A stretch of DNA of 64,000 nucleotides, taken from an uncultured Flavobacteriales bacterium (lineage in GTDB: Bacteria > Bacteroidota > Bacteroidia > Flavobacteriales > UBA1820). Positions 21,252-64,000 of this stretch are shown here, in pieces. Under the pieces are notes generated by a model. The model did no database searches, was not told the origin of the DNA, and saw nothing but the letters and a program-made list of their open reading frames with translations. The position numbers and the translations under genes were made by a program. The DNA lies in contig CABSLV010000004.1 in NCBI GenBank assembly GCA_902478645.1, positions 24,411-88,410 on the forward strand. The letters are read 5' to 3'. The first letter of the stretch is position 1. Every line of letters begins with the position of its first letter.

Positions 21252-22355
21252 TTACAGGACTTTGGCAAAAATATTGCGGTCGTAATCGCCGTACTTGTGC
21301 TCCACGTATCCTACCTTGGCGTATCCCATCGCCAGGAAATTGTTCTCGCTGTGGATATTGCGGGGGGAAATGGTGGCCAGAAGCTCCCGTATACCGCGCT
21401 CGCGGGCTACCGTTTCAAGATGCTCCATCAACTCCCGCTGCAAGCCCTGCCCGCGATGGGAAGGACGCACGATGACGAGTTTGATGTTGGCATACACCGA
21501 ATAGTCCTCCACTTGCCGGCCGAGGTACTGCACCAGGTTTTCCTCCGTATCGCGGGCAAAATAGAGAATGGCAAAGCCCACGAGTTCCCCCCGGGAAAAA
21601 GCCCCCACGACGAAATGGTTCTCCAGACAGTCGCGCAGCACCGAAGCGGGATTGGCCCGCAGGATCTGCTTGTCCTCCATCTGTGCGAAGGCTTCGTCCT
21701 GTATGGCCAAAAGGCCGCCCAGATACGGAACGCCGATCTGCGCATAGGTGATCTGCTGTGCATCGGGGTCTTCGCCATAGACAGGGCATCCCTTGGCAGA
21801 ACGGTACGCCTCCCACACCTGCTGGAGTTCCTGGATGTTCCCGAAATTGCCTTTGGCAATCTTCCGCCGGTAGATACAACGGTTGCGCACCGCAATAAAG
21901 AAACGGTAGGCGAACAGGTCGTCGATGGTCTCGATGCGCAACACGCCTTTCTTGCGCAGGACGTTGAGCACCTCGAAAAAGGTCAGGTAATTGGATATGT
22001 CGCTGTTTTCGAGCTGTTCGATCTCCCTTTCGGCCTTGCGGAGCAGACCTTCCTCCGCCTGGCAACTCAACAAACGCTGGTAATTGTCCAATGCGGCATA
22101 CACCCGTTTGTAATCGGGATTGGAGACAAAAGAGGTGTTGATGTTGGCGATGAACTCGGCCTCGGCGATGTCGTTGGTCATTTCGAGTTCCCGATACACC
22201 AGAATGACACCCACCGCAGCTACCACCAGCGACGAGACGGACAACAGCGTAGCCAGGATATGCTGATACCCCATCATGTTGAGCAGGGCCACGATCGCCG
22301 AACAGATAACGGCTGTGATCAGAATCAGCCATACGGTATGTTTTTTCTTTTTCAT
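21252..22355 (-). CDS. Membrane-anchored GNAT N-acetyltransferase fusion (2 TM + unknown middle domain + GNAT)
   Basis: Start trimmed to MKKKKHTVW at 22355. Two TM helices. The middle region has a NYLTFFEVLNVLRKKGVLRIETIDDLF pattern. C-terminal GNAT with an acetyl-CoA motif VRPSHRGQGLQRELMEHL. Confidence 0.7.
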   Translation of the reverse strand: MKKKKHTVWLILITAVICSAIVALLNMMGYQHILATLLSVSSLVVAAVGVILVYRELEMTNDIAEAEFIANINTSFVSNPDYKRVYAALDNYQRLLSCQAEEGLLRKAEREIEQLENSDISNYLTFFEVLNVLRKKGVLRIETIDDLFAYRFFIAVRNRCIYRRKIAKGNFGNIQELQQVWEAYRSAKGCPVYGEDPDAQQITYAQIGVPYLGGLLAIQDEAFAQMEDKQILRANPASVLRDCLENHFVVGAFSRGELVGFAILYFARDTEENLVQYLGRQVEDYSVYANIKLVIVRPSHRGQGLQRELMEHLETVARERGIRELLATISPRNIHSENNFLAMGYAKVGYVEHKYGDYDRNIFAKVL

Positions 22356-22502: not shown

Positions 22503-23849
22503 TTACTTCTTCTTGGCCGCAGCAACCGCTTTGACGAATTCGTCGAGGGTTACTTCCTTGACCTTGTAAGGCACCTTCTCCTTGAAGATGTCCATCAGTT
22601 TTTCGCGCACCAGCATGTTCTGGATACGGCCTACCTCCTCGCGGTTTTTCAACACGCGCTCCAAGATCGGGTCGAGCTGTTCGTCCGGCATCCCGGCCTG
22701 ACCGTACTGGGCCATCTGCATGCGCAGCAGGTCTTTGGCACGCTGCTGGATCATCGCATAGTCGATGCGCACCCCGGCGTCGAGCAAAAGCTGCGTTTCG
22801 ATCAACTGGTAACGCAGGCTCTTTTCCGAATCCTTCATCTGCTGCTCGGCTTCCTGATCGGTCATCGGCTTTTCGGCCGAAGCCATCAGCCAGCGGCGCA
22901 GGAAGTCCGTCGGCAGGTCAAATTTCGTATTCTCGATCAGGTAGTCGATCGTATCGGTCATCATCTGAGCGTCGGTCTCGGTGCGGAAAGCAGCCTCGGC
23001 CTCCTCCTGGATCTTCTGACGGAAAGCCGCTTCATCGGCCACCGCCTCCGGACCGTAGAGACGTTCGAAGAGTTCCTTGTCCAAAGCATGGGGCTCGACG
23101 TTGGTGATGCGGGTGATGGTCAGCACCAGCGTATCGGCGAAGTCCTGGCACTCGTCGGCCGACTTGCCCAAGAACTGCGACAGGCGGGTAGCAGACTTGA
23201 AGTCCTTCGGAGATACCTCTACTGCATCGCCTACCTTCTTGCCGATAAAGTTCTTGGCATTCTTTATGTCGGCTACGATGATCATCCCCTCCTTGTACGC
23301 ACCGGGCTGGTACAGGTTGCCGTCCTTGTCGCGGGCTTCGATGTTGACTACCACGTCGGAAGCCTTTTCCACCTGCTCCATCGGCGTCATCTTGCCGAAC
23401 TGTTTGGCCAGGCTGGCGATGTGGTCTTCGATGTACTCGGGGCTCACCTTGATGCGGTACGAAACCACCTTCTTGGCTGCATCCTCGGGTTTTACCTTTA
23501 CCTGAGGGATCAGGCCGATCTCGAACTGGAACGAGAAGTCCCCGCCTTTCTCCCAGTCGATGTTCTGGGGCACGGGCAGAGGCTGTCCGAAAATATCGAG
23601 TTTTTCCTTGCGGAGGTAGTCGTCCACTGCCGCATTGACCACTTTATTGACCTCTTCGGCCAAGGCCATCGTACCGTACTGTTTGCGGATGACCGAGGCG
23701 GGTACCATCCCTTTGCGGAATCCCGGAATGTTCGCGTTCTTGCGGATATTGGCCAGCGATTTTTCCACAGCATCTTTGTAATCGGCCTGGTCCACATCCA
23801 CCCGGATGACGGCATTCAGGGCGTCCTTGTCTTCTCTCGAAACTTTCAT
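22503..23849 (-). CDS. tig: Trigger factor
   Basis: 448 aa. N-terminal ribosome-binding PGFRKGMVP motif and overall trigger factor architecture. Confidence 0.92.
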   Translation of the reverse strand: MKVSREDKDALNAVIRVDVDQADYKDAVEKSLANIRKNANIPGFRKGMVPASVIRKQYGTMALAEEVNKVVNAAVDDYLRKEKLDIFGQPLPVPQNIDWEKGGDFSFQFEIGLIPQVKVKPEDAAKKVVSYRIKVSPEYIEDHIASLAKQFGKMTPMEQVEKASDVVVNIEARDKDGNLYQPGAYKEGMIIVADIKNAKNFIGKKVGDAVEVSPKDFKSATRLSQFLGKSADECQDFADTLVLTITRITNVEPHALDKELFERLYGPEAVADEAAFRQKIQEEAEAAFRTETDAQMMTDTIDYLIENTKFDLPTDFLRRWLMASAEKPMTDQEAEQQMKDSEKSLRYQLIETQLLLDAGVRIDYAMIQQRAKDLLRMQMAQYGQAGMPDEQLDPILERVLKNREEVGRIQNMLVREKLMDIFKEKVPYKVKEVTLDEFVKAVAAAKKK

Positions 23850-23908: not shown

Positions 23909-23939
23909 CAAAGGTACTCTTTTTATACCGGTTTACAAA
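23909..23939 (-). promoter_or_regulatory. Bacteroidota-type promoter for tig
   Basis: On the minus strand, TTTG (23936-23939), a 19-nt spacer, then TACCTTTG (23909-23916). This matches the TTTG / TAnnTTTG consensus. Confidence 0.6.
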
Positions 23940-23943
23940 AATT

Positions 23944-25377
23944 TTAGAAGCCTATGTTCATCGAACCCTCGGCCAGACGGTCGGCATCCCGCTCGGTAAC
24001 GATGCGGTCGTATTCGCCCTCGGGGTCTTCGGAAAGGCCCGCCAGACGCACCGCCGTACGCTGGGAGATGAGTTCCCGCCCGCCGTTGGCCAGATTGAGT
24101 GCCTGGATCATCGCCGAACGGTCGTCCACCATGAAAGGCTCGATGCGCTGGCTCACCTCGATCTGGTCGATGTAGGGTTCGAGTGCATTGTTGAGCACCC
24201 CCAGGTAGCGGCGTATCAGGTTCATGCGGCGTTCGAGGTACTGCCCGAAGAGCTCGCCCTTGTTCTGCACCTTCAGGTGCGCATCCAGGAAGAGCATCCG
24301 CAGGGCCACCCCGGACAGATTGGCCAGCCCCTTGACCGAATCGAACGAAATGTCGGGCGTCTGGGTCGTGCTGTAAATCATGCTGAGCAAGGTACTGATC
24401 TCCAGCCGGACGGACTCCGGAGCCTGTTGCCACGAAAGGTACTGCGCCGTCGAATTGGCCTCGCCTTCGATGATCGCCCCGGTCTCCCCTTTGCGGGCAA
24501 ACCCGCGGATCTCGCCCGTCACGAAGATCTTGGGCGAAGCGTGGTAATCGTTCGTATCGGCAAAATTGGACAACAGTTTTTCCAAACGCTCGATCAGAGG
24601 CTGCACATCGGCCCACTCGCTCTTTTCCTGCCGGCCGTACACCACCGGGATCTTTCCCAGGATGTTTTCCCTGCGCTCCACCAGCGCCCACGAACCCTTC
24701 TCCTGACGCTCGAAGCGCACGATCTCCTGGTCCGTGTAGGTCTCGAAATACTCTTTCTCCACCCCCGTCTCCACCGTGGCATACCGCCGGGAAAACGCCG
24801 TCATGTCGCCGTAGTGGTCGAACAGGGGGAACAGTCCGTCCTCTTGCGAGGGCGACAGCAGGGAAACGCGCAACTTGTACTGCGAAGGCGTCTGCCCCAC
24901 GAATGAAAAGCGCTCGTTGCGGCCCACACGTGCCCAAAACCCGTTCTCGGGCACCGGATACCACAGCTCGGCCGCTTCCGTCTCCCAAAGGATGGTACGG
25001 GCCAGACGGCGGTTGAGCGAGTCGATCTTGTTGTCGGTCAAGGTGCGCCGTACCGCCTCGAAAGCGCCCGCCTGTCCATCGCTGTCCGTGGCACAGGTTA
25101 CCTGTACCGGATGGCCGAACAGAAAAGCCACTGCCCGCTCCACGATGACCCGCTGGAGCGGCAACGCGATGCGGGCTACCTTTTCAAAACGCTCGATCTG
25201 TCCGTCCGTTCCCCGAACCGCTTTGTCGGGACGCTCCGAGATGTCGAATATCCGATGTCCGCGCGGGTCGTACTGTTGGCGCAATCGGGTGATCTGCGGC
25301 TGCGGCGTGGCGCGCCGGCTCAAGGCTTCGACCCATTCGTTGGCCGAGGTGCCTTGCACGAGGTCTTCTATTTTCAT
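23944..25377 (-). CDS. Phage portal protein homolog (SPP1 gp6-like), orphan
   Basis: 477 aa from MKIEDLVQGTS at 25377. Segment-by-segment resemblance to SPP1 gp6. Examples: NRRLARTILWETEAAELWYPV; GKIPVVYGRQEKSEWADVQPLIERLEKLLSNFADTNDY; ALRMLFLDAHLKVQNK; and a C-terminal LISQRTAVRLAGLSEDPEGEYDRIVTE. Confidence 0.78.
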   Translation of the reverse strand: MKIEDLVQGTSANEWVEALSRRATPQPQITRLRQQYDPRGHRIFDISERPDKAVRGTDGQIERFEKVARIALPLQRVIVERAVAFLFGHPVQVTCATDSDGQAGAFEAVRRTLTDNKIDSLNRRLARTILWETEAAELWYPVPENGFWARVGRNERFSFVGQTPSQYKLRVSLLSPSQEDGLFPLFDHYGDMTAFSRRYATVETGVEKEYFETYTDQEIVRFERQEKGSWALVERRENILGKIPVVYGRQEKSEWADVQPLIERLEKLLSNFADTNDYHASPKIFVTGEIRGFARKGETGAIIEGEANSTAQYLSWQQAPESVRLEISTLLSMIYSTTQTPDISFDSVKGLANLSGVALRMLFLDAHLKVQNKGELFGQYLERRMNLIRRYLGVLNNALEPYIDQIEVSQRIEPFMVDDRSAMIQALNLANGGRELISQRTAVRLAGLSEDPEGEYDRIVTERDADRLAEGSMNIGF

Positions 25378-25433
25378 TTCTTTTCGAGTTTGATTTGTTT
25401 TCGTTCCGACGGACAAAAGACCGCCTTTTCTCA

Positions 25434-25465
25434 CAAATATAATCAAAAAAGAAATAAAATCCAAA
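25434..25465 (-). promoter_or_regulatory. Bacteroidota-type promoter for the portal homolog
   Basis: On the minus strand, TTTG (25462-25465), a 20-nt spacer, then TATATTTG (25434-25441). It lies about 55 nt upstream of the ATG at 25377. Confidence 0.65.
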
Positions 25466-25527: not shown

Positions 25528-26001
25528 TCACCACCCCGAAGAACGCGCTTCCAGGGCCAAGAGGAACGCTTTGGCGGCCATTCCCCCCGCATAGCCGGTC
25601 AGGGATCCGTCGGCTCCCACCACCCGGTGGCAGGGGATCACGAGGACTAGCGGATTGACGTGGCAGGCGCGACCGACGGCCCGGGAAGCCCGGGGACGTC
25701 CTACTTGTGCGGCGATCTGCCCGTACGTGCGGGTTTGCCCATAGGGTATCCCGAGAAGCGCTCGCCATACCGCCCGGGAAAATGCGCTGCCCTGCCCTCC
25801 GAGCGGAAGGTCGAACTGCCGGCGCTGCCCGGAAAAATATTCCCCGAGTTGGGCGGTCGTCTGCGCGAGGAGGTCCGTGCGCTGCAAGACTTCCCCCGGA
25901 GAAAGCGGGCGTCGGCCGAAAAACACTTCCACCAGCCGGGAGTCTTCCTCTGCCGCGCCCATCCACCCGATGGGGGTTTCGAAATAGTGCATGTACTTCA
26001 T
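25528..26001 (-). CDS. ogt: Methylated-DNA--protein-cysteine methyltransferase
   Basis: YGQIA...VGRACHVNPLVLVIPCHRVV active-site PCHR motif. Start trimmed to MKYMHYFETPIG at 26001. Confidence 0.88.
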   Translation of the reverse strand: MKYMHYFETPIGWMGAAEEDSRLVEVFFGRRPLSPGEVLQRTDLLAQTTAQLGEYFSGQRRQFDLPLGGQGSAFSRAVWRALLGIPYGQTRTYGQIAAQVGRPRASRAVGRACHVNPLVLVIPCHRVVGADGSLTGYAGGMAAKAFLLALEARSSGW

Positions 26002-26263
26002 CGTTTTCTTTTTCTGCAAGACACCTCTCCGGCAAAGATAAACCGGGAGGGACATCCGGACAAGCCGTTTTCCCCATTTATCCACCGAGGCAATGCACAA
26101 GCGGCGCAAGAAAATAGGCTCCGTGTCCGCCATTTGCCCAAAGATTCGTATTTTTACTTCGCATTTGCGTTTACCCCCTGGGGGCTCCGCAGGGCAACGA
26201 CAAGGTTGCAAAGGGTACGTCCCAGAAAACAGCAACCTAAAAAAAACAGCACGAAAGAAAAAA

Positions 26264-31035: not shown

Positions 31036-34000
31036 ATGAAAAAACTATGCTTTCTGTTGAGTCTGGCTACGATCGTCGGACTCGGCTCCTGCTCGCGGGA
31101 TTTCAGCGAGACCGATCCTACTCCCTCGGCACAGGGAACCCACTCCCTGAAAGCCTCCATCGCGCAAAGCGAACCCACCACCCGCACCGGCTTGGGCGAC
31201 AAAGACGAAGAAAACGGTACAACGCCCTTGTTGTGGGTAGCAGGTGACAAAATCGCCGTAGTCGACGACGCAGAACCCAATACCGTACACCAGTACATCC
31301 TCGACCCTGCTGCCGCCGGACAGACCGAAGGCACGTTTACCGTCAGCGAAGGGGATGGCGTCCAGGGCGCTGCTTCCATCACGGCGTACTACCCTTATAC
31401 GTTCTATTCGGCTTCGCAGGGGTTGTCCGTGCCCGCCACCCAACAGTACAAGGAGGGACGGACGATGGAAACCGACATGCTCCCCATGTACGCCCATTCT
31501 TCCGGGGCGGAAGTGGGCGAGTTGGACTTCCATCCCGTTGCCGGGCTGATCAACCTGCAACTGACCAAAAACGACAAACTGAACGAAAGCCGTCTGTTCT
31601 ACTCCGTCAAACTGGTTTCCTCCGAGGATAACCTCGCCGGGAAAGGTTCCCTCGCCGACGACAGCGAAGGATACAAGGTGCTGACCATCGACGGGGACGA
31701 TGCCTCGAAAGAGATCACCTTCTCTTTGGGCGAAAGCGGTTTAGCCCTCAAGGAAGGCGAAATCACCTCCCTAATGTTCGTCGTACCGGCCAAAACGTAT
31801 AGTGCCTCCACGTTGAAGTTCGTCCTCACGTACAAAAACAGCCCGGACGATGCCGACTTCCAGACCATCGACCTACCCGTCCGCTCGGCGGTAGAAGTAC
31901 AGCGCGGACATATCGTCAATTTTGCAGCCACCGATGTCGGCCTGTTGATTTCAGGCATCGCTCCTGAAGAGGTAAAAGAAGTCATTACCGACGCAGCCAC
32001 CTCCGGTGAGTCCGAGATCCCGCAAGTGATCGAAGTGGTGGGCATGGATGCCGGCGGGGAATATACCATCGAGCTCCCCACGGTGTACAATGAAACGAAA
32101 AATCAGGAAACCATCTCGTTGGTAGCTACCGACGTTGCGGCCGGAGCTACCATCCTTGTGCAGGAGACTGCCGCCACGGGGATCGCTCCCCAGCAGTATG
32201 TGAGCCTCGCCAATGCCACCGACAACTCCTGCAACGTAGCCGTCGAACTGCCCAACTCGACCGTCACCCTCGACGGCACGTTCGACAACGTGGAAGCTAC
32301 CACCGCCGACCAGACGCTCATCATCCCCTCGGGGACCGTCGTGCAGAACCTGACGGTCAAACAAGGCTCGGTCAAGATCTACGGTACGGTCAAGAACCTG
32401 ACTACCGCCTCCGGCTGGAGCGGAGAGATCGTTCGCGGGATTTCCTCCCAGGAATGCTTCGACAAAGCCATGGAAAACGACGCCTCGATCAACTATACGT
32501 TCGACTACGCTCTGATCGACCGCCCCATCCCGAACCTCGACGGAAAGGGAAAAACGCTGGCGCTCCCGCTGAAAGTCTCGGCCGACGCAACCATTTCCAA
32601 CCTCACCATCCGTCCTTCGGAGTCCATCGAGGCCAACGGCATCACCATCCTTCAGGACAGCGTCGATCTGTCGCTCAACGGAGTGGACATCTACGTTTCC
32701 TCCAACAACTCCTCCGCCGGGCTGAACACCGGACTGCTGATCGCCGAAGTGAACAACGTTACGGCCACCTTGAAGGATTGCCACATCGTCGTGCCCAAGA
32801 GCTACCAGCGCGGTATCAACATGCATAGCGCAAAAACCGCCGGTACGACCACCGTTACCCTGGACAACACCCACATCGGACCTACGCTCGAACCCCTGAC
32901 CACGGATTACAGCCACGACACCTACACCCAGGAACAGATCGACGCGTTCAAAGCCCGCGTGGACAGCCGGGGTGTCAGCTTCGGCGGACCGCACAGCGCC
33001 CGCTACGTGCTGAACCTGCGGAACGGTTCGGTGATCGAAGGAGTATTCTACGCCATCAACTTCACGTACTACGCCGCTCCGGTAGAGATCAACGTGGATC
33101 GTTCGATCATCGACGGTCGCTGCGCCTTCAACATCTGGGCCAACGGCGAAGGAACGAAGATCAACGTAACGAACGGCTCGAAACTGGTGGGACGCAACTA
33201 CTTCCCCGGTCCGACAGAGGTTTATGCCAATATCGTCATCGAAAGCAAAGCCAACGGACAGGCAGCCGAGAACAACGTCATCACCGTGCGCGACAGCGAA
33301 TTCCACTGCTTCAACGAACCGCAAACCAATACCAACTGGCAATACGCGCTCGATGTCCGCTCCGAAGGGGTCAACACCATCCAGCTGCTGGGTGAGACCA
33401 AGATATACGACCACAGCGGACGCCTTCCCCATGCCATCGATGTCGGAGGCTGGAGCAACCAGTTTGTCATCGACCCGAGCGTATCCTTCGCCATGGGCAT
33501 GGAAGGAGCGACCATCCTGCCGACACACATCTGGGACGGTTCTTCGTTCAAATTCCCCGGGAAAGCCCTGGACGGCAAATACTACATCGGCGAGCCTTCC
33601 CAGCTGGCCGCACTCACCCTGCAGGTCCCCGAAGGGATGGACATCGTCCTGGTACGCGACCTGGACCTGAACAACCATCCTTGGCTGGCCAAATATCCCA
33701 CTTCCGGCACTAAAGCCAATACGGTGGACGGCGGCGGCCATACCATCTACAACCTCAACACCGGTACGGTCGGATGGGATACCAAGACGGAATGTCCGGG
33801 ACTGTTCTCGGCCTTTGCCGGTACGATCAAGGATCTCACGATAGAGAATGCTACCGTGTACGGTTCCCGGGCAGGTGCTCTCGCCGGCCGACTGGACTAC
33901 GGCACGATCACCAATTGCCACGTGAAGAACGTTACCTTTATCGGAGGAGCACAAAAGATGGCTGGCTTGATCGGCTTTATCAACGGAAACGGTGACATCG

Positions 34001-34440
34001 TTCTGGACGGTTGCTCGGTCGACGGATGCCTGATAGTCAACGACCCTGCCCCGAAAGGCGACGATGGTGCTGCCATAACCGGCGATGCATCGTGCATGGC
34101 CGGAGGATTGGTCGGATTCATCCAGTCTTTCAACCACAAGGTGGACATCCGGAATTGTTCCGTGAAAAACACGACTGTGCAGAGCGGTCTGCTTTGGGAC
34201 AACTATTCGGGATGCACTTCGCACGAATTCATCGGCAACATCGCCAACACCTACAAATACCCCAATGCGGTGTTTACGCTGACCAACAACACCATTGAAG
34301 GTTCCTCGTGCGATGCAAAAGTCCGCATGAACGACTATTTCGGATTCTGCTATACGGGCGAATCCGGACAGACCGATCCTTACGCCCGGGTAGTGGTCGA
34401 CGGAGAGGTTATCACCGAAGGCCCGGCCGCCGGCGAATAA
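31036..34440 (+). CDS. Large surface lipoprotein: fimbrillin-like N-domain, beta-helix-like middle, C-terminal GLUG repeats
   Basis: Lipobox MKKLCFLLSLATIVGLGSC. N-domain pattern WVAGDKIAVV...TAYYPY...LDFHPVAGLINLQL, typical of Bacteroidales fimbrillin/Mfa-like lipoproteins. C-terminal repeats AGALAGRL, MAGLIGFI and MAGGLVGFI...IRNCSV match the GLUG motif. Start trimmed from 30976 to 31036. Confidence 0.8.
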   Translation: MKKLCFLLSLATIVGLGSCSRDFSETDPTPSAQGTHSLKASIAQSEPTTRTGLGDKDEENGTTPLLWVAGDKIAVVDDAEPNTVHQYILDPAAAGQTEGTFTVSEGDGVQGAASITAYYPYTFYSASQGLSVPATQQYKEGRTMETDMLPMYAHSSGAEVGELDFHPVAGLINLQLTKNDKLNESRLFYSVKLVSSEDNLAGKGSLADDSEGYKVLTIDGDDASKEITFSLGESGLALKEGEITSLMFVVPAKTYSASTLKFVLTYKNSPDDADFQTIDLPVRSAVEVQRGHIVNFAATDVGLLISGIAPEEVKEVITDAATSGESEIPQVIEVVGMDAGGEYTIELPTVYNETKNQETISLVATDVAAGATILVQETAATGIAPQQYVSLANATDNSCNVAVELPNSTVTLDGTFDNVEATTADQTLIIPSGTVVQNLTVKQGSVKIYGTVKNLTTASGWSGEIVRGISSQECFDKAMENDASINYTFDYALIDRPIPNLDGKGKTLALPLKVSADATISNLTIRPSESIEANGITILQDSVDLSLNGVDIYVSSNNSSAGLNTGLLIAEVNNVTATLKDCHIVVPKSYQRGINMHSAKTAGTTTVTLDNTHIGPTLEPLTTDYSHDTYTQEQIDAFKARVDSRGVSFGGPHSARYVLNLRNGSVIEGVFYAINFTYYAAPVEINVDRSIIDGRCAFNIWANGEGTKINVTNGSKLVGRNYFPGPTEVYANIVIESKANGQAAENNVITVRDSEFHCFNEPQTNTNWQYALDVRSEGVNTIQLLGETKIYDHSGRLPHAIDVGGWSNQFVIDPSVSFAMGMEGATILPTHIWDGSSFKFPGKALDGKYYIGEPSQLAALTLQVPEGMDIVLVRDLDLNNHPWLAKYPTSGTKANTVDGGGHTIYNLNTGTVGWDTKTECPGLFSAFAGTIKDLTIENATVYGSRAGALAGRLDYGTITNCHVKNVTFIGGAQKMAGLIGFINGNGDIVLDGCSVDGCLIVNDPAPKGDDGAAITGDASCMAGGLVGFIQSFNHKVDIRNCSVKNTTVQSGLLWDNYSGCTSHEFIGNIANTYKYPNAVFTLTNNTIEGSSCDAKVRMNDYFGFCYTGESGQTDPYARVVVDGEVITEGPAAGE

Positions 34441-34809: not shown

Positions 34810-35853
34810 ATGATACGAAAGATCACATTCCCTGTCCTTGCCTTGGGCGGCTTGCTATTCATCCTTCTGTCCGGGTTCGCCCCTTTTCCTCAAAACGAAC
34901 AGAGCGAAGCAACGACCTCGGAGATCGCTCCGGAAGAAGACTCCACCGTATCCGTCATTGCCTGGTTTTGCAAAGGAGACACGATGACCTACTGGATCCA
35001 TGACGGTCAGTGGAAAGTCGTCGGAGGGGATACGATCCAAACTCTCGGCGTCCACACCAAGGTGATGCTCACCGTAACAGATTCCTCTTCGAAAGGCTAC
35101 GCGCTGGAATACCGTTTTTTGGAATTCGACTTTGACCCGATCGAAGGTTCCGAGACCCAAAACATCGTGAATCTCGCCGCAAGCCAGCTCCAGAAAGACA
35201 TCGTGGGTACCGTCATCCGATTCCACACCGATGAAGTAGGGCAGATCACAAAATACGAAAACCTCAAAGAAGTCAAAAAACAGGCCAAGGACCTTTTTTC
35301 CAATTTCGTACAGCAAATGCCGTACATCGACTCTTTGGCGGCAGACGGGATAAAGATAGAACCACTGCTCAAAAAGATCGGTTCCAGCGACCTGCTGATA
35401 GACGGATACGTCGAGGAACTCGAGATGCTCTTCCGATGCCATGGGAACCAATACCCCATCGGGGAATTCACCGAGCATCAGGATGCCACAGAGACGGAAT
35501 ACGCCTCCGACACGTATATGGCGGTAGGGATGGATCCGGAAACCTACGAATACGACCTCCGGATCGACGTCGACAACTACATCCCGAAAGAAGACCTCAA
35601 AAGCCTTGTCGGTGACTTGGCCGACCTGTTGCTGGACAAGGACGCAGCGCAGGAGGCCAAGAAGGAAATCGCGACCGAATTCGACCAACAGATCCAGAAC
35701 GATGCGGTGTACGGCTCCTATCTGCACGCAAAATACTTCCCCGACGGATGGCCCGAAGACATCATTTATCAGGAGAAAACCTTACTGGAGGGACAAGGAA
35801 AACTGACGCAGAAATACATCACGTGGGATTACCGGAGCGTGGGCAATTTTTAA
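34810..35853 (+). CDS. Hypothetical membrane-anchored/secreted protein
   Basis: 347 aa, N-terminal hydrophobic anchor, acidic soluble body. No family recognised. A TAGATTTG -7 box lies at 34777-34784. Confidence 0.6.
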   Translation: MIRKITFPVLALGGLLFILLSGFAPFPQNEQSEATTSEIAPEEDSTVSVIAWFCKGDTMTYWIHDGQWKVVGGDTIQTLGVHTKVMLTVTDSSSKGYALEYRFLEFDFDPIEGSETQNIVNLAASQLQKDIVGTVIRFHTDEVGQITKYENLKEVKKQAKDLFSNFVQQMPYIDSLAADGIKIEPLLKKIGSSDLLIDGYVEELEMLFRCHGNQYPIGEFTEHQDATETEYASDTYMAVGMDPETYEYDLRIDVDNYIPKEDLKSLVGDLADLLLDKDAAQEAKKEIATEFDQQIQNDAVYGSYLHAKYFPDGWPEDIIYQEKTLLEGQGKLTQKYITWDYRSVGNF

Positions 35854-35998: not shown

Positions 35999-36961
35999 AT
36001 GAAACTGCTGCTACCCCTCCTCGTCTCGACACTCCTGCTGTCGTCCTGCGCCTCCCTGTTCAACCCGGAACATTGCCGGACGGACTTCCGATCCCCCGTA
36101 CCGAGAACCGTCCTCATCGACTCCACCACGATCCGGGTGCAACCCGGCAAAGCCACCCCCGTGGCTTTCATGCGGGGGAACCAAACGAAAGAAGCGGTAC
36201 TGATCACCGACACCCGCACCGACACCATCGAGGTCCGTCCCCGGTGGAGCGAAGCCTATTACTTCAACTTCGCCACCTGCGGGATAGGCTTTCTCTTCGA
36301 CGGCAAGACCCCGAAAAAATGGAAATACCCCTCGACCCTGCGCCTTACCGACCGGTACATCGACAGACATCGCAAAGGTGCCGACCCGTATGCGGACTAT
36401 CGGTATGCCGACAAAGGCTCCTGGAACCTCCACATAAGCCTCCCATACGCCAATGCCTTCTACTCGGCCTATGGAAAGGAAAACCAGTGGGGGGCGGGAT
36501 TTCTGGGACTGTCCCTGGGGCTGTCCTACCACACGAGCGACAAGACATTCGTCAACCTCTCCGCCGCCGGCATCCTGGACTCCGAAATACCGATCCCCGT
36601 CGCGATCGATTATGAAAGCCCCCAGGTCAAGGACCACCGGTATTCGATCCTGGCCAACCTGTCGAACAATCACCTGCTGCTGCAAAAAAGACTTTCCCTG
36701 GGATACGGCCTCTCGTATGGATACGACACCTGGAATACGATCCACCACGGGATAGCCCAAGAAGGGGAAAAACAAGAAAACATCCATCGCACCTCGCTTT
36801 CCCTGGGATTTGTCTTTCCCGTATATTACTACACCCGGCGCAGCTTTTATCTGGGGATGGTCTATCGGCCCATGCTCGTGCAGTTCGCGCACGGGACGCA
36901 TTTCAAGTACCAGCACACCCTCAGTTTCGATTTCGGATGGCGCATCCGGCTGACCAAATAA
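35999..36961 (+). CDS. Hypothetical lipoprotein with a beta-barrel-like C-terminal half
   Basis: Lipobox LLLSSCAS. The C-terminal half has alternating aromatic/small residue strands (LSLGLSYH, LSLGYGLSYGY, LSLGFVFPVYYY, TLSFDFGWRIRL). No family recognised. Confidence 0.6.
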   Translation: MKLLLPLLVSTLLLSSCASLFNPEHCRTDFRSPVPRTVLIDSTTIRVQPGKATPVAFMRGNQTKEAVLITDTRTDTIEVRPRWSEAYYFNFATCGIGFLFDGKTPKKWKYPSTLRLTDRYIDRHRKGADPYADYRYADKGSWNLHISLPYANAFYSAYGKENQWGAGFLGLSLGLSYHTSDKTFVNLSAAGILDSEIPIPVAIDYESPQVKDHRYSILANLSNNHLLLQKRLSLGYGLSYGYDTWNTIHHGIAQEGEKQENIHRTSLSLGFVFPVYYYTRRSFYLGMVYRPMLVQFAHGTHFKYQHTLSFDFGWRIRLTK

Positions 36962-39016: not shown

Positions 39017-39091
39017 AAGGCCATTGATATTGTTCGCAAATATACGAACAATATCGAAAAAACAAACCCTTCTCTTCCCGAAAAACATGCT

Positions 39092-39514: not shown

Positions 39515-39546
39515 CAAATATAGCGTGCTTAATTTTTTCTACCAAA
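39515..39546 (-). promoter_or_regulatory. Bacteroidota-type promoter for the tRNA-Gly pair
   Basis: On the minus strand, TTTG (39543-39546), a 20-nt spacer, then TATATTTG (39515-39522). Confidence 0.65.
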
Positions 39547-56960: not shown

Positions 56961-56993
56961 TTTGGCGGTTTCAAAAATTTAACCCTATATTTG
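56961..56993 (+). promoter_or_regulatory. Bacteroidota-type promoter for tRNA-Phe
   Basis: TTTG (56961-56964), a 21-nt spacer, then TATATTTG (56986-56993). The tRNA 5' end is at 57006. Confidence 0.7.
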
Positions 56994-60940: not shown

Positions 60941-61363
60941 TCACAGCTTCTTGCGGCGGGACTGCGCGGCATACAAAGCCGACAACTCGTCGAACTCTTT
61001 GTGCAAGGCCGCTAATCTCTCCGGATCCTTTTCAATAATACAAGCTGAACGCATATATGATTTTTTTACAATGATATTCTGTATATCAAACCTGTGGATA
61101 ATTTTCATCCCAGTCATAATCATAACCCGCGATAATGCATTCAACTCATTGCTCCAAAATGCACCTCGTTGACTGTTTTCTGCCCTATCCATCACAGTAT
61201 CTGCTTTTGTTAGAAAGCGTTCTATTTCCTCTTTAGAAATAGGTAATTTCCCCCCCTCTAAGATCCGATGAGCGGTATCGCATAAGAGAGTCAAGGCCGG
61301 TTCGAAATCGTTTGCATCGACCAATTCATCGACCTTTTTGTACAAAGAAGTAAAATCTATCAT
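60941..61363 (-). CDS. Hypothetical protein (140 aa), compositionally chimeric ORF
   Basis: ATG at 61363. No family recognised. The 5' roughly 340 nt are AT-rich, while the last 70-80 nt (encoding ...LHKEFDELSALYAAQSRRKKL) are host-like GC-rich. Confidence 0.5.
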   Translation of the reverse strand: MIDFTSLYKKVDELVDANDFEPALTLLCDTAHRILEGGKLPISKEEIERFLTKADTVMDRAENSQRGAFWSNELNALSRVMIMTGMKIIHRFDIQNIIVKKSYMRSACIIEKDPERLAALHKEFDELSALYAAQSRRKKL

Positions 61364-61401
61364 GGCTTTATCGGTTTTATGGTGTTAAACATGGTTCACG
61401 G

Positions 61402-61598
61402 TTACATTTCCAATCGCATCACCCGCTGAGGTTTTGTCCATTTATCTCTATTAGGCACGTATATCTGGAGGAGGCCGCCCTCGGTCCGGTAGATGCCGTT
61501 CTGGATTGGAGCGATTTCGCTCTCAAAGATAGGGATTCCCTCCTTGAGCTCTTCCTGTTTCGGCGTAATTTTGTAGATATAGTATTGCCGGGCCCGGC
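61402..61598 (-). pseudogene. Start-less ORF fragment (probable gene remnant)
   Basis: The reading frame ...ARQYYIYKITPKQEELKEGIPIFESEIAPIQNGIYRTEGGLLQIYVPNRDKWTKPQRVMRLEM has no ATG/GTG/TTG until near its end. The track ORF gets its start (TTG 61662) only by reading through repeat copy 2 and its terminator hairpin. Confidence 0.45.
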
Positions 61599-61644
61599 TG
61601 CCGGGAAAGGGGCATAAAAAAGCCGCACCCCGATGGGGTGCGGC
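61599..61644. repeat. 46-bp direct repeat, copy 2 (contains a terminator hairpin)
   Basis: Identical to 60872-60917. Flanked by A-runs on both sides. It lies directly downstream of the stop of the 61666-61884 ORF on the minus strand. Confidence 0.9.
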
Positions 61645-61665
61645 AAAAAAATAGAAGAACAATGC

Positions 61666-61884
61666 TTACATAGGTTTGGGATATTCTGCCAAAAATTCCC
61701 GCTTGAAATCCTCCCATAGCGAAAAACTCTCGCGCAACACCGCCTCCAACTCGTCGTAATCGCCGAAAAAAGGATAAAGCGGTACTTGTTCCCGAGGAAC
61801 ATTCATCAACAATCCATACAATCCCATCCATATCCTCGATAAGGGACGTACTAATTTTTTATCACGAAATACAGCCCAAATCAA
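61666..61884 (-). CDS. Hypothetical small protein (72 aa from TTG, or 53 aa from the ATG at 61827)
   Basis: Open frame ending ...DYDELEAVLRESFSLWEDFKREFLAEYPKPM. No family recognised. Followed by a terminator hairpin. Confidence 0.35.
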   Translation of the reverse strand: MIWAVFRDKKLVRPLSRIWMGLYGLLMNVPREQVPLYPFFGDYDELEAVLRESFSLWEDFKREFLAEYPKPM

Positions 61885-62002
61885 TTCTACCTGACCATAT
61901 TCAAGTGCTATATTAAATTTGGGTAATTATATACAAGTTTACACCAACACATTTTTGTTTGTGTATTTTTTTACTATATTTGTGTCGTGATCGAATTTAA
62001 TT

Positions 62003-62911
62003 ATGAAAGACTTCAATTCATTAATAGAGTTATTCATAGCTTTCCCGGATGAACAAAGTTGCATTAATCATTTGGAACGACTTCGTTGGAATGGAATTGT
62101 TGTTAGTCCATTTGATCCTACATCGAAAGTCTATAAATGCAAATATAACAAATATAGATGCAAAAACACAGGGAAATATTTCAATGTCAAGACGAATACT
62201 CTTTTTGATAGCTCAAAAATTGAACTAAGAAAGTGGTTTGCTGCTATATGGCTTGTTACATCCCACAAAAAAGGTATTTCCTCTTTACAGTTAAGTAGAG
62301 ATATAGATGTAACACAGAAGACAGCATGGTTTATGCTTCAACGTATTCGTAATTGTTTTGGAATAGAAAACAACGATAAACTTAGCAACACCGTTGAAGT
62401 TGATGAAACCTATATAGGAGGAAAAAACAAGAATAGACACACTAACAAGAGAGTAACAGGTTCACAAGGGCGCAGCGTAAAAGACAAATCACCTGTTCTT
62501 GGAATGGTGGAGCGAAAAGGGAAACTTGTAGCAAAAGTTGTGAAGAATACAAGCGGAGGTATATTAACTCCACAGATCATTAATTTTGTTAAAGATGCTC
62601 TTATATATACCGATGAATGGTGGGGATACAATTCTATCAAAAAGTTGTTCAAACACAGCTATGTCAATCACCGATCTAATGAATATGTAAGAGGAGATGT
62701 ATATACAAATACTATTGAAGGTTTTTGGTCGATTCTAAAACGAGGAATTATAGGTATCTACCACTTTACATCAAAACAACACTTGCAACGTTACGTGGAT
62801 GAGTTTGTTTTCAGATACAACACAAGAAAACATACGGATGGAGAGAGATTTAATCTTCTGATCAGAAACAATGAACATCGTTTAACTTATAAAGAATTGA
62901 TATATGGATAA
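62003..62911 (+). mobile_element. IS1595-family (ISXO2-like) transposase gene
   Basis: 302 aa. The N-terminal zinc-ribbon region (CINHLERLRWNG...YKCKYNKYRCKN...) is followed by a DDE_Tnp_IS1595-like core (VEVDETYIGGK...IYTDEWWGYN...NTIEGFWSILKR). Very AT-rich relative to the backbone. TATATTTG box at 61975-61982. IS ends not identified. Confidence 0.8.
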
Positions 62912-63851
62912 TAGAGTAAGAAATCGTGGAGAGTTGGATTTAGCAGGGATAAAAATACCTTGTTATGTTCTTGAAGATGGAACAAGAGTATTGTCAGGAA
63001 GAGGAATGCAAGAAGCTCTAAATATGGTTGATGATAATGGAAAAACATCGGGCCATAGGATATTGAGATATTTGAGTCAAAAAACACTTAAACCATTTAT
63101 TTTCAAGGATAAAGGGTTGGGCCACTTTAATCCATTAACTTGTTATGATGGAAATAAGAAAATAAACGGTTATGAGGCTACCGTATTAGTTGATATATGT
63201 GATGCTTTTTTAGAGGCAAGAAAACACATAAAACTATCATCAAGGCAGGCTATTATTGCTGACCAATGTGAAATACTCGTTAGGGCGTTTGCTCGATTAG
63301 GTATAATCGCCCTTGTCGATGAGGCAACAGGATACCAAAATGAAAGGGAGCATCTTGAACTTCAAAAGATATTAAGTGCATATATATCCGATGAAATTCT
63401 AAAATGGCAACTTACATTTACGGATGATTTCTATCGCGAGATATATCGCTTATGGGGACTTCCTTTTATTCCTAAATATATTCGACAAAAGCCTTCATTT
63501 ATTGGGAAGCTTACACGTAAATATATATATGAAGAATTACCTAAAGGTGTGGTCGAAAAGATACAAGAAAAAGTAGAGAAAACTGAAAAAGGAAACTGGA
63601 AATACAAGTGGCACCAAACCCTTACCCCAGAAATTGGTCGAGAACATTTGAAACGTCAAATTATTGAGGTTACAACACTGATGTCAATATCTCAATCAAA
63701 GGAACAGTTTGATGCTTTATTCCAACAAAAGTATCATAAGGTTGTACAACTGGAAATGGAGTTCAATGAAGTAGTTGAAGAGCCTAAAACATATGATTTC
63801 GATACAAAATTGATGATTGCATTATCATCCAATCCCCATAGAAAGGAATAA
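62904..63851 (+). CDS. P63C-domain protein
   Basis: 315 aa. The pattern IPCYVLEDGTRVLSGRGMQEAL...GYEATVLVDICDAFLEAR...IIALVDEATGYQ...FYREIYRLWG is typical of phage/Bro-associated P63C domain proteins (from memory). 8-nt overlap (ATGGATAA) with the transposase gene. Confidence 0.7.
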   Translation: MDNRVRNRGELDLAGIKIPCYVLEDGTRVLSGRGMQEALNMVDDNGKTSGHRILRYLSQKTLKPFIFKDKGLGHFNPLTCYDGNKKINGYEATVLVDICDAFLEARKHIKLSSRQAIIADQCEILVRAFARLGIIALVDEATGYQNEREHLELQKILSAYISDEILKWQLTFTDDFYREIYRLWGLPFIPKYIRQKPSFIGKLTRKYIYEELPKGVVEKIQEKVEKTEKGNWKYKWHQTLTPEIGREHLKRQIIEVTTLMSISQSKEQFDALFQQKYHKVVQLEMEFNEVVEEPKTYDFDTKLMIALSSNPHRKE

Positions 63852-64000
63852 CTGGATGAATGTAATTATATATGTAAGAAAACACATCTTCCACGATTTG
63901 TATTATACATATAAAATCTTCATTCTTCATATCTTCATGGAATAGAAATATTTTTGTAATACAAAAACAACTAATAAATTTGCTACATGAACTGGAACAA

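Follow-up and report, generated by a model that had tools for sequence, protein, structure and literature searches.

Portal proteins have been viewed solely as the one distinctive vertex of a virus head. In RcGTA and PBSX, the portal gene lies within the head cluster, beside the genes for TerL and the capsid protein. Another head protein, the HK97-fold capsid protein, has been domesticated as a nanocompartment in the encapsulins, which are encoded together with cargo genes. A dominant-negative logic is known from Gag genes of endogenous retroviruses, namely mouse Fv1 and sheep enJS56A1. In 2014, Bobay, Touchon and Rocha reportedly described multi-gene prophage remnants that are inherited vertically within enterobacterial species and kept under purifying selection. 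Phage satellites practice capsid-assembly piracy on their helper phage, as an excerpt of one account describes for SaPI CpmAB, P4 Sid and PICI (PMC6893505).

The gene analyzed here lies in a 64-kb stretch of DNA from a gut Flavobacteriales bacterium (the window, 64,000 nucleotides). It belongs to the same family as the portals of SPP1 (gp6) and 80alpha (PF05133) and shares with them the predicted fold over the full length, the invariant residues and the pattern of constraint. However, no terminase, MuF, scaffold or capsid neighbors were found beside it, and the gene is chromosomal, vertically inherited and of host composition, with its own conserved promoter and an insertion in the wing domain. 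RcGTA g3, PBSX XkdE and FpGTA I are likewise domesticated portals that are inherited vertically under host control and purifying selection, but they lie inside head-tail clusters, whereas the window portal stands alone in all the DNA examined. Unlike the multi-gene enterobacterial remnants, it is a single structural gene fixed across a roughly family-deep lineage. As in the encapsulins, one phage head protein appears to have been domesticated for a host purpose, yet here the protein is a portal rather than a capsid, and no cargo or partner is evident. The logic that we propose below is that of Fv1 and enJS56A1, in which a viral structural protein kept by the host spoils the assembling particle of a related virus; those genes are eukaryotic retroviral Gag genes with arms-race evolution, whereas the window portal shows no sign of positive selection. 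Satellites are also chromosomal and interfere in trans with the head assembly or packaging of a helper, as proposed here for the portal, but a satellite moves, can be induced and comprises several genes, among them those for an integrase and for replication; no such features were found at the window portal.

The portal gene (positions 23944 to 25377, minus strand) encodes 477 amino acids, with an ATG start and a TAA stop (23944-23946) included in these coordinates, and is a full-length member of the SPP1/80alpha type. The initial annotation had recognized it as an SPP1 gp6-type portal, and both profile and structural comparison bear this out. In the profile search, the protein matched Pfam PF05133 (SPP1 gp6-like) with an E value of 3.2e-46 and 158.6 bits (cutoff, 25.5), and residues 66-465 were aligned with positions 39-412 of the 416 in the profile. 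PHROG 64, annotated as portal protein, matched it with an E value of 7e-62. The AlphaFold2 (AF2) model of the monomer (pLDDT, 80.7; pTM, 0.75) contains the wing, stem helices, clip, tunnel loop and crown in the canonical order, and in Foldseek its best matches were the 80alpha/SaPI1 portal, SPP1 gp6 and the NF5 portal (E values of about 1e-16; 447-501 aligned columns). The SaPI1 capsid uses the 80alpha portal, and it is this solved structure that is the best structural match of the window portal. A search of the PDB with the portal sequence returned no match, and the score for the TIGR01538 equivalog (60.5 bits) was below the cutoff of 165.85. The C-terminal motif pointed out earlier is present as SQRTAVRLAGLSEDPEGEYDRIVTE, and the protein sequence is without a signal peptide or transmembrane segment.

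We then compared 10 domesticated with 56 other portal sequences and found 50 invariant and 62 near-invariant columns common to both sets; the clade-specific substitutions in the domesticated portals were conservative ones only. The conservation profile runs parallel with that of phage portals, and no domain appears relaxed or remodeled. The most constrained part is the region of the stem, clip, tunnel loop and alpha6 (residues 256-380; positions 24238 to 24612, minus strand), in which omega was 0.01-0.04 and the majority identity across the lineage was 88-98%. Portals of this family assemble into 12- or 13-mer rings around a central channel, and the clip of the AF2 monomer (277-314), within this region, has low pLDDT, which we interpret as what may be expected of a region that folds between subunits. 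The wing carries a clade-specific insertion of about 10-15 residues (approximately residues 145-163; positions 24889 to 24945, minus strand) that is missing from at least 70% of the aligned phage relatives. Its residues F147 and W148 are invariant, and the AF2 model places two short helices in it (H147-151 and H155-161).

The neighborhood of the gene is that of a bacterial chromosome. As noted before, ogt (methylated-DNA-protein-cysteine methyltransferase; 25528 to 26133, minus strand) lies upstream and tig (trigger factor; 22503 to 23849, minus strand) lies downstream, with intergenic spaces of 150 and 94 nt beside the portal gene. ogt is the upstream neighbor in this species only. tig, which we regard as context rather than as part of the element, is the first gene of a conserved downstream block, tig-(GNAT)-clpP-clpX-pta-ackA. 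No terminase, capsid, protease, tail or integrase gene was found among the Pfam-labeled genes of the 64-kb window, where the labels are those of called genes on exact-match contigs that cover most of the window and leave few genes unlabeled. Four genes without a Pfam label gave no match when scanned against PHROGs, and tblastn of the window with phage TerS, TerL, MuF and capsid proteins returned nothing. The search for traces of these four proteins was also negative in about 290 kb of partly overlapping DNA of the lineage, including the orthologous loci. The earlier observation that there are no phage genes nearby is thus upheld by Pfam labels, PHROGs and tblastn, with nothing phage-like found within 24 kb on one side of the portal and 38 kb on the other.

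A low-GC mobile island occupies 61-64 kb of the window, 36 kb from the portal, and contains an IS1595 transposase, P63C and SocA_Panacea but no head genes. A 1159-amino-acid protein just past the right end of the window was considered as a head gene, and about 40 of its residues (80 in tblastn) are common with phage MuF/ADP-ribosyltransferase proteins; we judged this to be a polyvalent-protein motif in a mobile island.

The portal gene has a putative promoter of the Bacteroidota sigma-A type (25434 to 25465, minus strand), with TTTG at -33, a 20-nt spacer and TATATTTG at -7. The 64-kb window has 5 occurrences of TTTG-N17-21-TATATTTG versus 0 expected, among them those upstream of tRNA-Gly and tRNA-Phe. 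The full consensus promoter first described, with the -7 octamer of the tRNA genes, is borne out. Its 3' 24 nt (25434-25457, TTATTTCYTTTTTGATTATATTTG) are identical in 15 of the 15 domesticated loci, are missing from the other 221 loci compared and from IMG/VR, and precede no other gene in the DNA examined. Between the -7 box and the ATG is an A-rich 5' leader (25378 to 25433, minus strand) that differs in length among species, with a partly conserved AAAYAAATMAAA-like stretch. The separate promoter attributed to tig was also located, as TTTG-N19-TACCTTTG (23909 to 23939, minus strand), beginning 4 nt past the portal stop codon; in the orthologues its -7 box is conserved, while the -33 TTTG is present in the high-GC ones only. 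No terminator-like site was seen in the interval between portal and tig. The invariant promoter of its own, together with the intact gene at a locus 5 kb away from tig, supports the proposal that the portal gene is a stand-alone transcription unit.

All members known so far of an isolated lineage of gut Flavobacteriales carry an orthologue (62-99% identity), placed without exception a short distance upstream of tig-clpP-clpX. The orthologues are intact across about 11 species-level clusters, which is not the picture of a strain-specific gene with decayed orthologues. Close relatives are entered at NCBI as "Flavobacteriales bacterium" MAGs, and among named organisms, Flavobacteriaceae have the nearest trigger factors; the host had at first been placed, wrongly, in the Rikenellaceae/Bacteroidales. 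The lineage is roughly family-deep, with 76% identity in ClpX and saturated dS. In a 1.98-Mb contig (ENA ERZ28750037 contig_11423), the portal lies at about 622.6-624.1 kb; GCA_028709885.1 and the MAGs CALJDR01, CAUHQV01 and JAFYKQ01 are further candidates for complete or near-complete genomes. Across the lineage, the gene on the upstream side of the portal has changed at least 4 times, and through these changes the portal has kept its place ahead of tig-clpP-clpX. In one species, portal and tig are separated by an insertion of 5 kb; the portal there is still intact and conserved, so adjacency to tig is not required. Of the suggested ogt-portal-tig synteny, the conserved part is therefore the portal-tig region; the ogt-portal arrangement is not conserved, and direct adjacency to tig is broken in the species with the insertion. 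Among the matches listed in a metagenome scan with the tig alignment, 0 of 80 distant tig loci (30-36% identity) had the portal gene. A +1 frameshift allele was observed in one strain, seen in three samples (SRR33759882, SRR30123995 and SRR10680639), and the portal is thus not essential but accessory.

In a neighbor-joining bootstrap tree on purpose-written distances, the domesticated portals form one clade (100 of 100 bootstrap replicates). The series of portal identities across species matches the tig series, and portal identity correlates with that of tig (r=0.78) and clpX (r=0.86). The dS of the portal equals the dS of the neighboring genes. The window portal has a GC content of 0.61 and a GC3 of 0.80, while the GC3 of tig, clpP and clpX is 0.77-0.83, in agreement with the host-like base composition that had been noted; across the lineage, the GC3 of the portal follows that of the host over a range of 0.35 to 0.80. 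Horizontal spread between species was considered and rejected, since the clade is monophyletic, dS and GC3 match those of the host, and portal identity correlates with that of host genes. As judged from these comparisons, the results show that the portal was acquired once, by the ancestor of this lineage, and has passed down vertically from there. A mild incongruence was seen for one member, L233, which joins the high-GC species by portal and the low-GC species by tig and clpP; we attribute it, without a test, to rate or composition effects.

We also analyzed selection on the gene. In three comparisons, the omega of the portal was 0.126, 0.032 and 0.036, versus 0.12, 0.026 and 0.040 for tig, so that the dN/dS of the portal (0.03-0.13) equals that of tig, and omega was <0.32 in all portal regions. 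Six DNA haplotypes that differ at up to 5% of synonymous sites code for one identical protein, although this within-species polymorphism is biased since the contigs were retrieved by exact protein identity. That protein is the commonest allele and is found in 577 indexed blocks of the collection. The substitution rates show that the lineage keeps the portal under purifying selection as strong as that on trigger factor, and the initial annotation, in raising a domesticated portal, is supported by synteny, selection, fold and the conserved promoter. Taken at the level of sequence, this suggests that the bacterium now uses the virus part for itself.

All relatives of no more than 51% identity with readable neighbors adjoin phage head or packaging genes, and portals with 33-51% identity were found in Porphyromonas and Riemerella siphophages and in hundreds of IMG/VR contigs. 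The portal of phage005 has 45% identity, and those of the Riemerella siphophages have 33-37%. In the relatives examined, the portal follows TerL directly or after a few kilobases of inserted cargo. The GC content of the related viral contigs gave no clue to phages infecting the lineage. Within the DNA examined, the analysis shows the window portal to be the one gene left from a Bacteroidota siphophage head-packaging module. Emticicia contains a similar, capsid-less TerS-TerL-portal remnant, in which TerS and TerL have been preserved alongside the portal, with equal selection on them; packaging genes can therefore outlive capsid genes locally. Conflict-type cargo (STAND NTPase and SUKH immunity proteins) lies beside the portal of this remnant. 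We offer the loci of Emticicia, which can be cultivated, as an intermediate stage of the same decay path, and they suggest that the single-gene domestication of a portal may be a recurring process in Bacteroidota.

We consider the chances slightly better than even that the portal works without a capsid or terminase of its own, as a free-standing ring that would be either an antiviral decoy or a new cellular ring machine. The most likely mechanism, to which we assign a probability of about 0.4, is that the free-standing ring is a dominant-negative decoy, which would interfere in trans with the assembly of phage heads. Procapsid assembly begins at a single portal vertex, so that a pre-made host ring with conserved wing and clip surfaces could be taken up instead of the phage portal. 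The host rings would act on the head assembly or DNA packaging of infecting siphophages with 45-51% identical portals, and the outcome would be dead-end or mis-packaged particles. The wing insertion (residues 145-163) is the candidate feature that could render the ring non-productive. The cell would keep a constant supply of free portal rings; when a portal is expressed by itself, it assembles into 12-mer rings that are not toxic (PMC13017515). In favor of the decoy, we count the complete portal with all family-invariant positions kept, its single acquisition and vertical descent, the purifying selection on it, the stand-alone unit with its invariant promoter, the accessory nature seen in the frameshift allele, the existence of plausible phage targets (the Porphyromonas, Riemerella and IMG/VR portals) and the conflict-type cargo beside the Emticicia portal. 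Against it, there is no arms-race signature, omega being low everywhere and the clip nearly invariant. The gene also lies among core housekeeping genes rather than in a defence island, and its fixation throughout the lineage contrasts with the patchy distribution that is usual for defence genes. PADLOC-DB 2.0 had no match for the portal, ogt or GNAT, and no precedent for a decoy, orphan or domesticated portal was found in the literature, nor was a description of accession JFBN01. Co-assembly with a phage scaffold and capsid at about 50% identity is uncertain, and with every interface intact, the effect of a host ring on a phage might be to assist it instead of blocking it.

The portal could alternatively belong to a dispersed gene transfer agent (GTA) or another domesticated particle, with the terminase, capsid, scaffold and tail genes of its particle at other loci of the approximately 2-Mb genome, which we regard as possible but doubtful. 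Lineage-wide fixation, vertical descent, a housekeeping-like omega and constraint parallel to that of phages are traits of GTA genes, and the outlasting of capsid genes by packaging genes in Emticicia would fit as well. GTAs can be encoded at several loci (PMC12946183; the same appears in an excerpt of PMC5026251), but the FpGTA I portal sits in a head cluster beside the genes for TerL and the capsid (PMC12946183). By the features used to recognize GTAs, we found vertical inheritance with purifying selection across the lineage, whereas clustered head and tail genes with TerL and major capsid were absent from the 64-kb window and the orthologous loci. The empty flanks (24 and 38 kb) and the negative search of the 290 kb of lineage DNA speak against this reading, as does the occurrence of the 24-nt promoter block at no other gene in the DNA examined. 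A tRNA-grade promoter on the portal alone also fits poorly with 12 copies per capsid and the tight regulation of GTAs. The literature search found no GTA in Bacteroidetes. A new cellular function is unlikely in our estimate; the ring would then be a scaffold, a channel or a machine that handles DNA or protein, perhaps tied to tig, clpP and clpX, and a portal counterpart of the encapsulins. The housekeeping-like rate and fixation, the persistence upstream of tig-clpP-clpX through all upstream-neighbor changes, the apparently strong, constitutive promoter and the clade-specific insertion with invariant aromatic residues speak for it. Yet a new function should shift the constraints, and these are the same as in phage portals; moreover, tig adjacency is dispensable, a frameshift allele circulates, and neither a signal peptide or transmembrane segment nor a conserved partner gene nearby was found.

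It is highly improbable that we are dealing with a neutral remnant whose reading frame has stayed open by chance, or with a gene retained only as the carrier of the tig promoter at its 3' end. The tig promoter does begin 4 nt past the portal stop, and one frameshift allele exists. However, the 1.4-kb open reading frame is intact in the roughly 11 species-level clusters at saturated dS with low omega in every region, its own promoter is invariant, and it is intact where a 5-kb cassette precedes tig. The omega values, invariant promoter and separated locus effectively refute the remnant reading, and because of the intact separated gene and selection at the amino acid level, we reject the idea that the gene is kept only for the tig promoter or as a member of a tig operon. 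The chance that the portal belongs to a prophage, complete or cryptic, or to a phage satellite with its other genes just beyond the examined region is close to nil. Only the origin of the gene and the mobile island 36 kb away would favor it, and that island is without head genes. Both flanks carry housekeeping genes syntenic between species, and inspection revealed neither an integrase or att-like repeat nor any gene for replication or structure; a prophage just outside the flanks, raised at the outset as a point to check, is refuted for the 24 kb to one side of the portal and the 38 kb to the other.

The portal also offers a dated, clean example of amelioration, in which one phage gene can be followed through host GC3 values from 0.35 to 0.80. 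If the gene belongs to a dispersed GTA, it would be the first in Bacteroidota as far as we know, and in a common gut organism; if its function is cellular, a new protein machine would be at hand. A decoy would represent a new class of bacterial antiviral defence by a viral structural mimic, one that is missed by defence-finders, as the lack of a PADLOC match indicates. If the free-standing ring is correct, it would be the first portal to be domesticated as a single gene, and a counterpart of the encapsulins and of Fv1-type restriction factors. A portal kept alone throughout a lineage, with housekeeping constraint and its own promoter, suggests that the ring can be useful outside a virus of the same genome.

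The 477-amino-acid protein encoded at 23944-25377 (minus strand) matched the Pfam SPP1_portal profile (PF05133; E=3.2e-46), scoring 158.6 bits (cut-off 25.5 bits) over profile positions 39-412 of 416, and matched PHROG 64, "portal protein," with E=7e-62. A PDB sequence search with the protein found no match. We then modeled the protein with AlphaFold2 using 66 homologues (pLDDT 80.7, pTM 0.75). In the model the wing leads into a stem helix, the clip and a second stem helix, then the tunnel loop, a long kinked helix and the crown, which is the canonical order. The top Foldseek matches were the solved portals of 80alpha/SaPI1 (8vd8), SPP1 gp6 (7z4w) and NF5 (9m6k), with E~1e-16, TM of 0.5-0.66 and 447-501 aligned columns. 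Because of this element order and Foldseek ranking, we consider the predicted portal fold confirmed across the full length of the protein. By sequence and fold it belongs to the SPP1 gp6/80alpha portal family, in line with the SPP1-type portal proposed in the initial annotation. Its context is not that of a working phage portal gene, as there is no packaging module and the protein scores under the TIGR01538 equivalog cut-off.

Pfam labels of the genes called on exact-match metagenome contigs covered most of the window and gave mutS, tsaD, tamB, feoB, ackA, pta, clpX, clpP and a GNAT gene. Next come tig, the portal gene and ogt, then galE and genes for an Asp-Al_Ex transporter and an esterase, with an ars operon, ilv/leu genes, lepA and a GH20 gene further along. 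A few genes had no Pfam label, and a PHROGs scan of four of them found no match. The absence of nearby phage genes was borne out by tblastn of the window with phage TerS, TerL, MuF-type head and capsid proteins, which found nothing. The 1134-aa ORF at 31036-34440 (+) and two ORFs of about 320-350 aa (34810-35853 and 35999-36961), all without a Pfam or PHROG match, adjoin a low-GC patch (0.44, 30-31 kb) and tRNA-Leu. The sole mobile DNA in the window was a low-GC island at 61000-64000 (GC 0.33-0.42 versus about 0.58), which encodes a transposase of the IS1595 family (62003-62911), a protein with a P63C domain (62904-63851) and a SocA_Panacea protein, and is probably a recent mobile insertion beside a mevalonate-diphosphate decarboxylase-like gene. 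On contig L069 (1-7633) the island continues about 5.6 kb past the window end, and a 1159-aa protein further out carries a short MuF/ADP-ribosyltransferase-like motif.

A search of 5.8 billion proteins returned portal orthologues at 99, 83, 82, 79, 79, 77, 74, 66, 64, 62 and 62% identity, followed by a fall to 51% or lower; members of the series were 475-478 aa long, except where a different start had been called or a contig end truncated the gene. We examined seven species-level lineages, represented by the window with locus L001 and by loci L003, L004, L005, L062, L064 and L233. In all seven, the portal gene lay upstream of tig-(GNAT)-clpP-clpX-pta-ackA on the same strand. The ogt half of the proposed ogt-portal-tig order was not general. 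The window's species has ogt as the upstream neighbor, and L003 and L004 have ogt together with an ORF for a membrane protein that, judged by its N-terminus, is possibly PnuC-like. L005 instead has an RND efflux pump and its outer-membrane factor, as read from the ORFs; L062 and L064 have galK and galT with a small lipoprotein gene, and L233 has NamZ. The GNAT acetyltransferase between tig and clpP (21252-22355, minus strand; 367 aa with a hydrophobic N-terminal segment) occurs in L003, L004, L233 and the window's species but not in L005 or L064, and is a lineage-specific insertion in an otherwise widespread tig-clpP-clpX cluster.

The portal gene is carried by gut MAGs labeled "Flavobacteriales bacterium" at NCBI, and all the lineage genomes are metagenome derived. 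Their trigger factors formed the same kind of series (100, 88, 84, 82, 67 and 64%) before dropping to 43% and lower, where the named matches were Lutibacter, Aquimarina and Flavobacterium. The host lineage is therefore an isolated Flavobacteriales branch, not the Rikenellaceae of the initial annotation. Insofar as clusters of the portal series can be matched to those of tig, every known member of the lineage carries the portal gene. The nearest outgroup tig locus had no portal, nor did any of 80 distant Bacteroidota tig loci.

The portal gene was acquired once, long ago, and has since descended vertically with full compositional amelioration and under strong selection on both protein and promoter. 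In a neighbor-joining tree with 56 other portals, the domesticated sequences formed one clade (bootstrap 100/100). Portal identity between lineages correlated with that of tig (r=0.78) and clpX (r=0.86). Since portal GC3 tracked that of the host genes from 0.80 (window) to 0.35 (L064), the gene has drifted in composition along with each host, in keeping with the host-like base composition first noticed. Across the seven lineages, GC3 of the portal, tig, clpP and clpX orthologues spanned about 0.35 to about 0.80. This is a very wide spread in composition for one lineage, and it may account for the mild disagreement between portal- and tig-based grouping of L233.

Purifying selection was evident from NG86 dN/dS values of 0.126 (window versus L003), 0.032 (L003 versus L004) and 0.036 (L062 versus L064) for the portal gene, compared with 0.120, 0.026 and 0.040 for tig, with matching dS; between deeper lineages dS was saturated. 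Every portal region is constrained: omega was 0.01-0.04 across aa 256-380, which hold stem, clip and tunnel, and 0.06-0.32 in the rest of the protein. The domesticated clade retained every one of the family's 50 invariant and 62 near-invariant positions, and its conservation profile paralleled that of the phage relatives, from which it differed by conservative substitutions and an insertion (about aa 145-163) in which F147 and W148 are invariant. The window's species had six DNA haplotypes (5% or less synonymous-site difference) with one identical portal protein, a comparison that is illustrative only because the contigs were retrieved by protein identity. This protein was indexed in 577 blocks of the collection searched.

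The portal promoter, TTTG, 20 nt, TATATTTG, was found at 25434-25465 (minus strand). The pattern TTTG-N17-21-TATATTTG had five exact occurrences in the window, with none expected, and as first described the box is common to tRNA genes (Gly and Phe). The four other sites were at 39037-39066 (-), 39515-39546 (-), 56961-56993 (+) and 61954-61982 (+); two of them lie ahead of these tRNA genes, a third ahead of the IS1595 transposase gene and the fourth at 39.0 kb. The separate tig promoter, TTTG-N19-TACCTTTG, was also recovered, beginning 4 nt past the portal stop codon, and no terminator-like site was found between the two genes. Upstream of the portal gene, the 24-nt block TTATTTCYTTTTTGATTATATTTG was identical in 15 of 15 loci despite unalignable flanking DNA between species, and was found neither in the other 221 loci compared nor in IMG/VR. 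Read from the alignment, a hairpin and T-run directly before the block in three species looks like a terminator of the upstream gene. Conservation of the block exceeds that of the tig promoter. It indicates selection on portal expression, and the block is perhaps also under selection as a regulator site.

The portal gene is independent of its adjacency to tig, and no partner phage gene was present in the lineage DNA examined. In the abundant species of orthologue P0165 (74% identity), a ~5-kb four-gene polysaccharide cassette (GFO_IDH_MocA oxidoreductase, hexapeptide transferase, UDP-glucose dehydrogenase and flippase; L233 11762-16237) separates the portal gene from tig. Because the portal gene and its promoter are intact there, retention through tig co-transcription or carriage of the tig promoter was rejected. 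In one haplotype of the same species (L230 4001-5429, L231 1511-2939 and L232 4001-5429), an additional T at nt 873, within the clip, shifts the frame by +1 and splits the gene into 319-aa and 144-aa ORFs; seven further substitutions set this haplotype apart from the intact L233 allele. It is a natural loss-of-function allele and occurred in three independent samples and sequencing runs. The portal gene is therefore dispensable in some settings and not essential.

All relatives at 51% identity or lower with readable neighbors adjoin phage head or packaging genes, usually in the order TerS-TerL-portal-MuF-type head protein-...-capsid. The closest isolated phages by portal infect Porphyromonas gingivalis (45.5%), followed by Riemerella siphophages (33-37%); the top IMG/VR match was 51%. 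Three species of Emticicia (Cytophagales) share a syntenic locus of TerS-TerL, 0.2-6 kb of variable cargo, portal and host genes (E. soli GCA_037860775.1, L245 1710-11389; E. agri, L040 3-8038; Emticicia sp. 17c, L022 4777-11338); of the host genes, an OMP gene and adh_short are common to E. agri and E. soli. In none of the three is the portal followed by a MuF, scaffold or capsid gene. TerL and portal are intact with omega of 0.05-0.08, equal to that of the adjoining host outer-membrane protein gene. Emticicia is a second lineage that keeps a packaging remnant lacking capsid genes, possibly an intermediate stage of the same decay.

The Emticicia TerL-portal gap behaves like a cargo hotspot, with cargo including an NB-ARC/TPR STAND NTPase, SUKH immunity proteins and methyl- or acetyltransferases. 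The NTPase (L022 6997-9849, plus strand; 950 aa, Avs-like architecture) lies exactly between large terminase and portal, the two protein classes that Avs-type sensors recognize; the same gap in E. soli holds two SUKH/SMI1 proteins and a methyltransferase.

As to function, we infer, with a probability of roughly 0.4, that a stand-alone portal ring would act in trans on phage head assembly or packaging, the host ring serving as a dominant-negative decoy. This reading fits best because the gene is alone, has a strong constitutive-type promoter and an unchanged portal constraint profile, and segregates a loss-of-function allele, and because related phages are abundant. Portals expressed alone form harmless dodecamers (PMC13017515). 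However, there was no arms-race signal, the setting is one of core genes, PADLOC gave no match for the portal, and the literature search found no precedent. The evolutionary pattern is best fitted by a portal belonging to a dispersed gene transfer agent (GTA), but the portal would then have to lie apart from all other head genes, unlike in the GTAs considered (PMC12946183); we hold this reading to be less likely than the decoy. Somewhat less probable still is a new cellular role, which the housekeeping-like rate and neighborhood favor but the unchanged constraints do not fit. The data effectively exclude that the gene is a neutral remnant or part of a hidden prophage.

In its mode of inheritance, the lone portal resembles GTA portals and domesticated defective-prophage genes, but unlike them it is one gene on its own, fixed throughout a lineage of roughly family depth, a case for which the literature search found no description. 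Phage-gene domestication as such is already known; there is a real chance that this portal is new in function.
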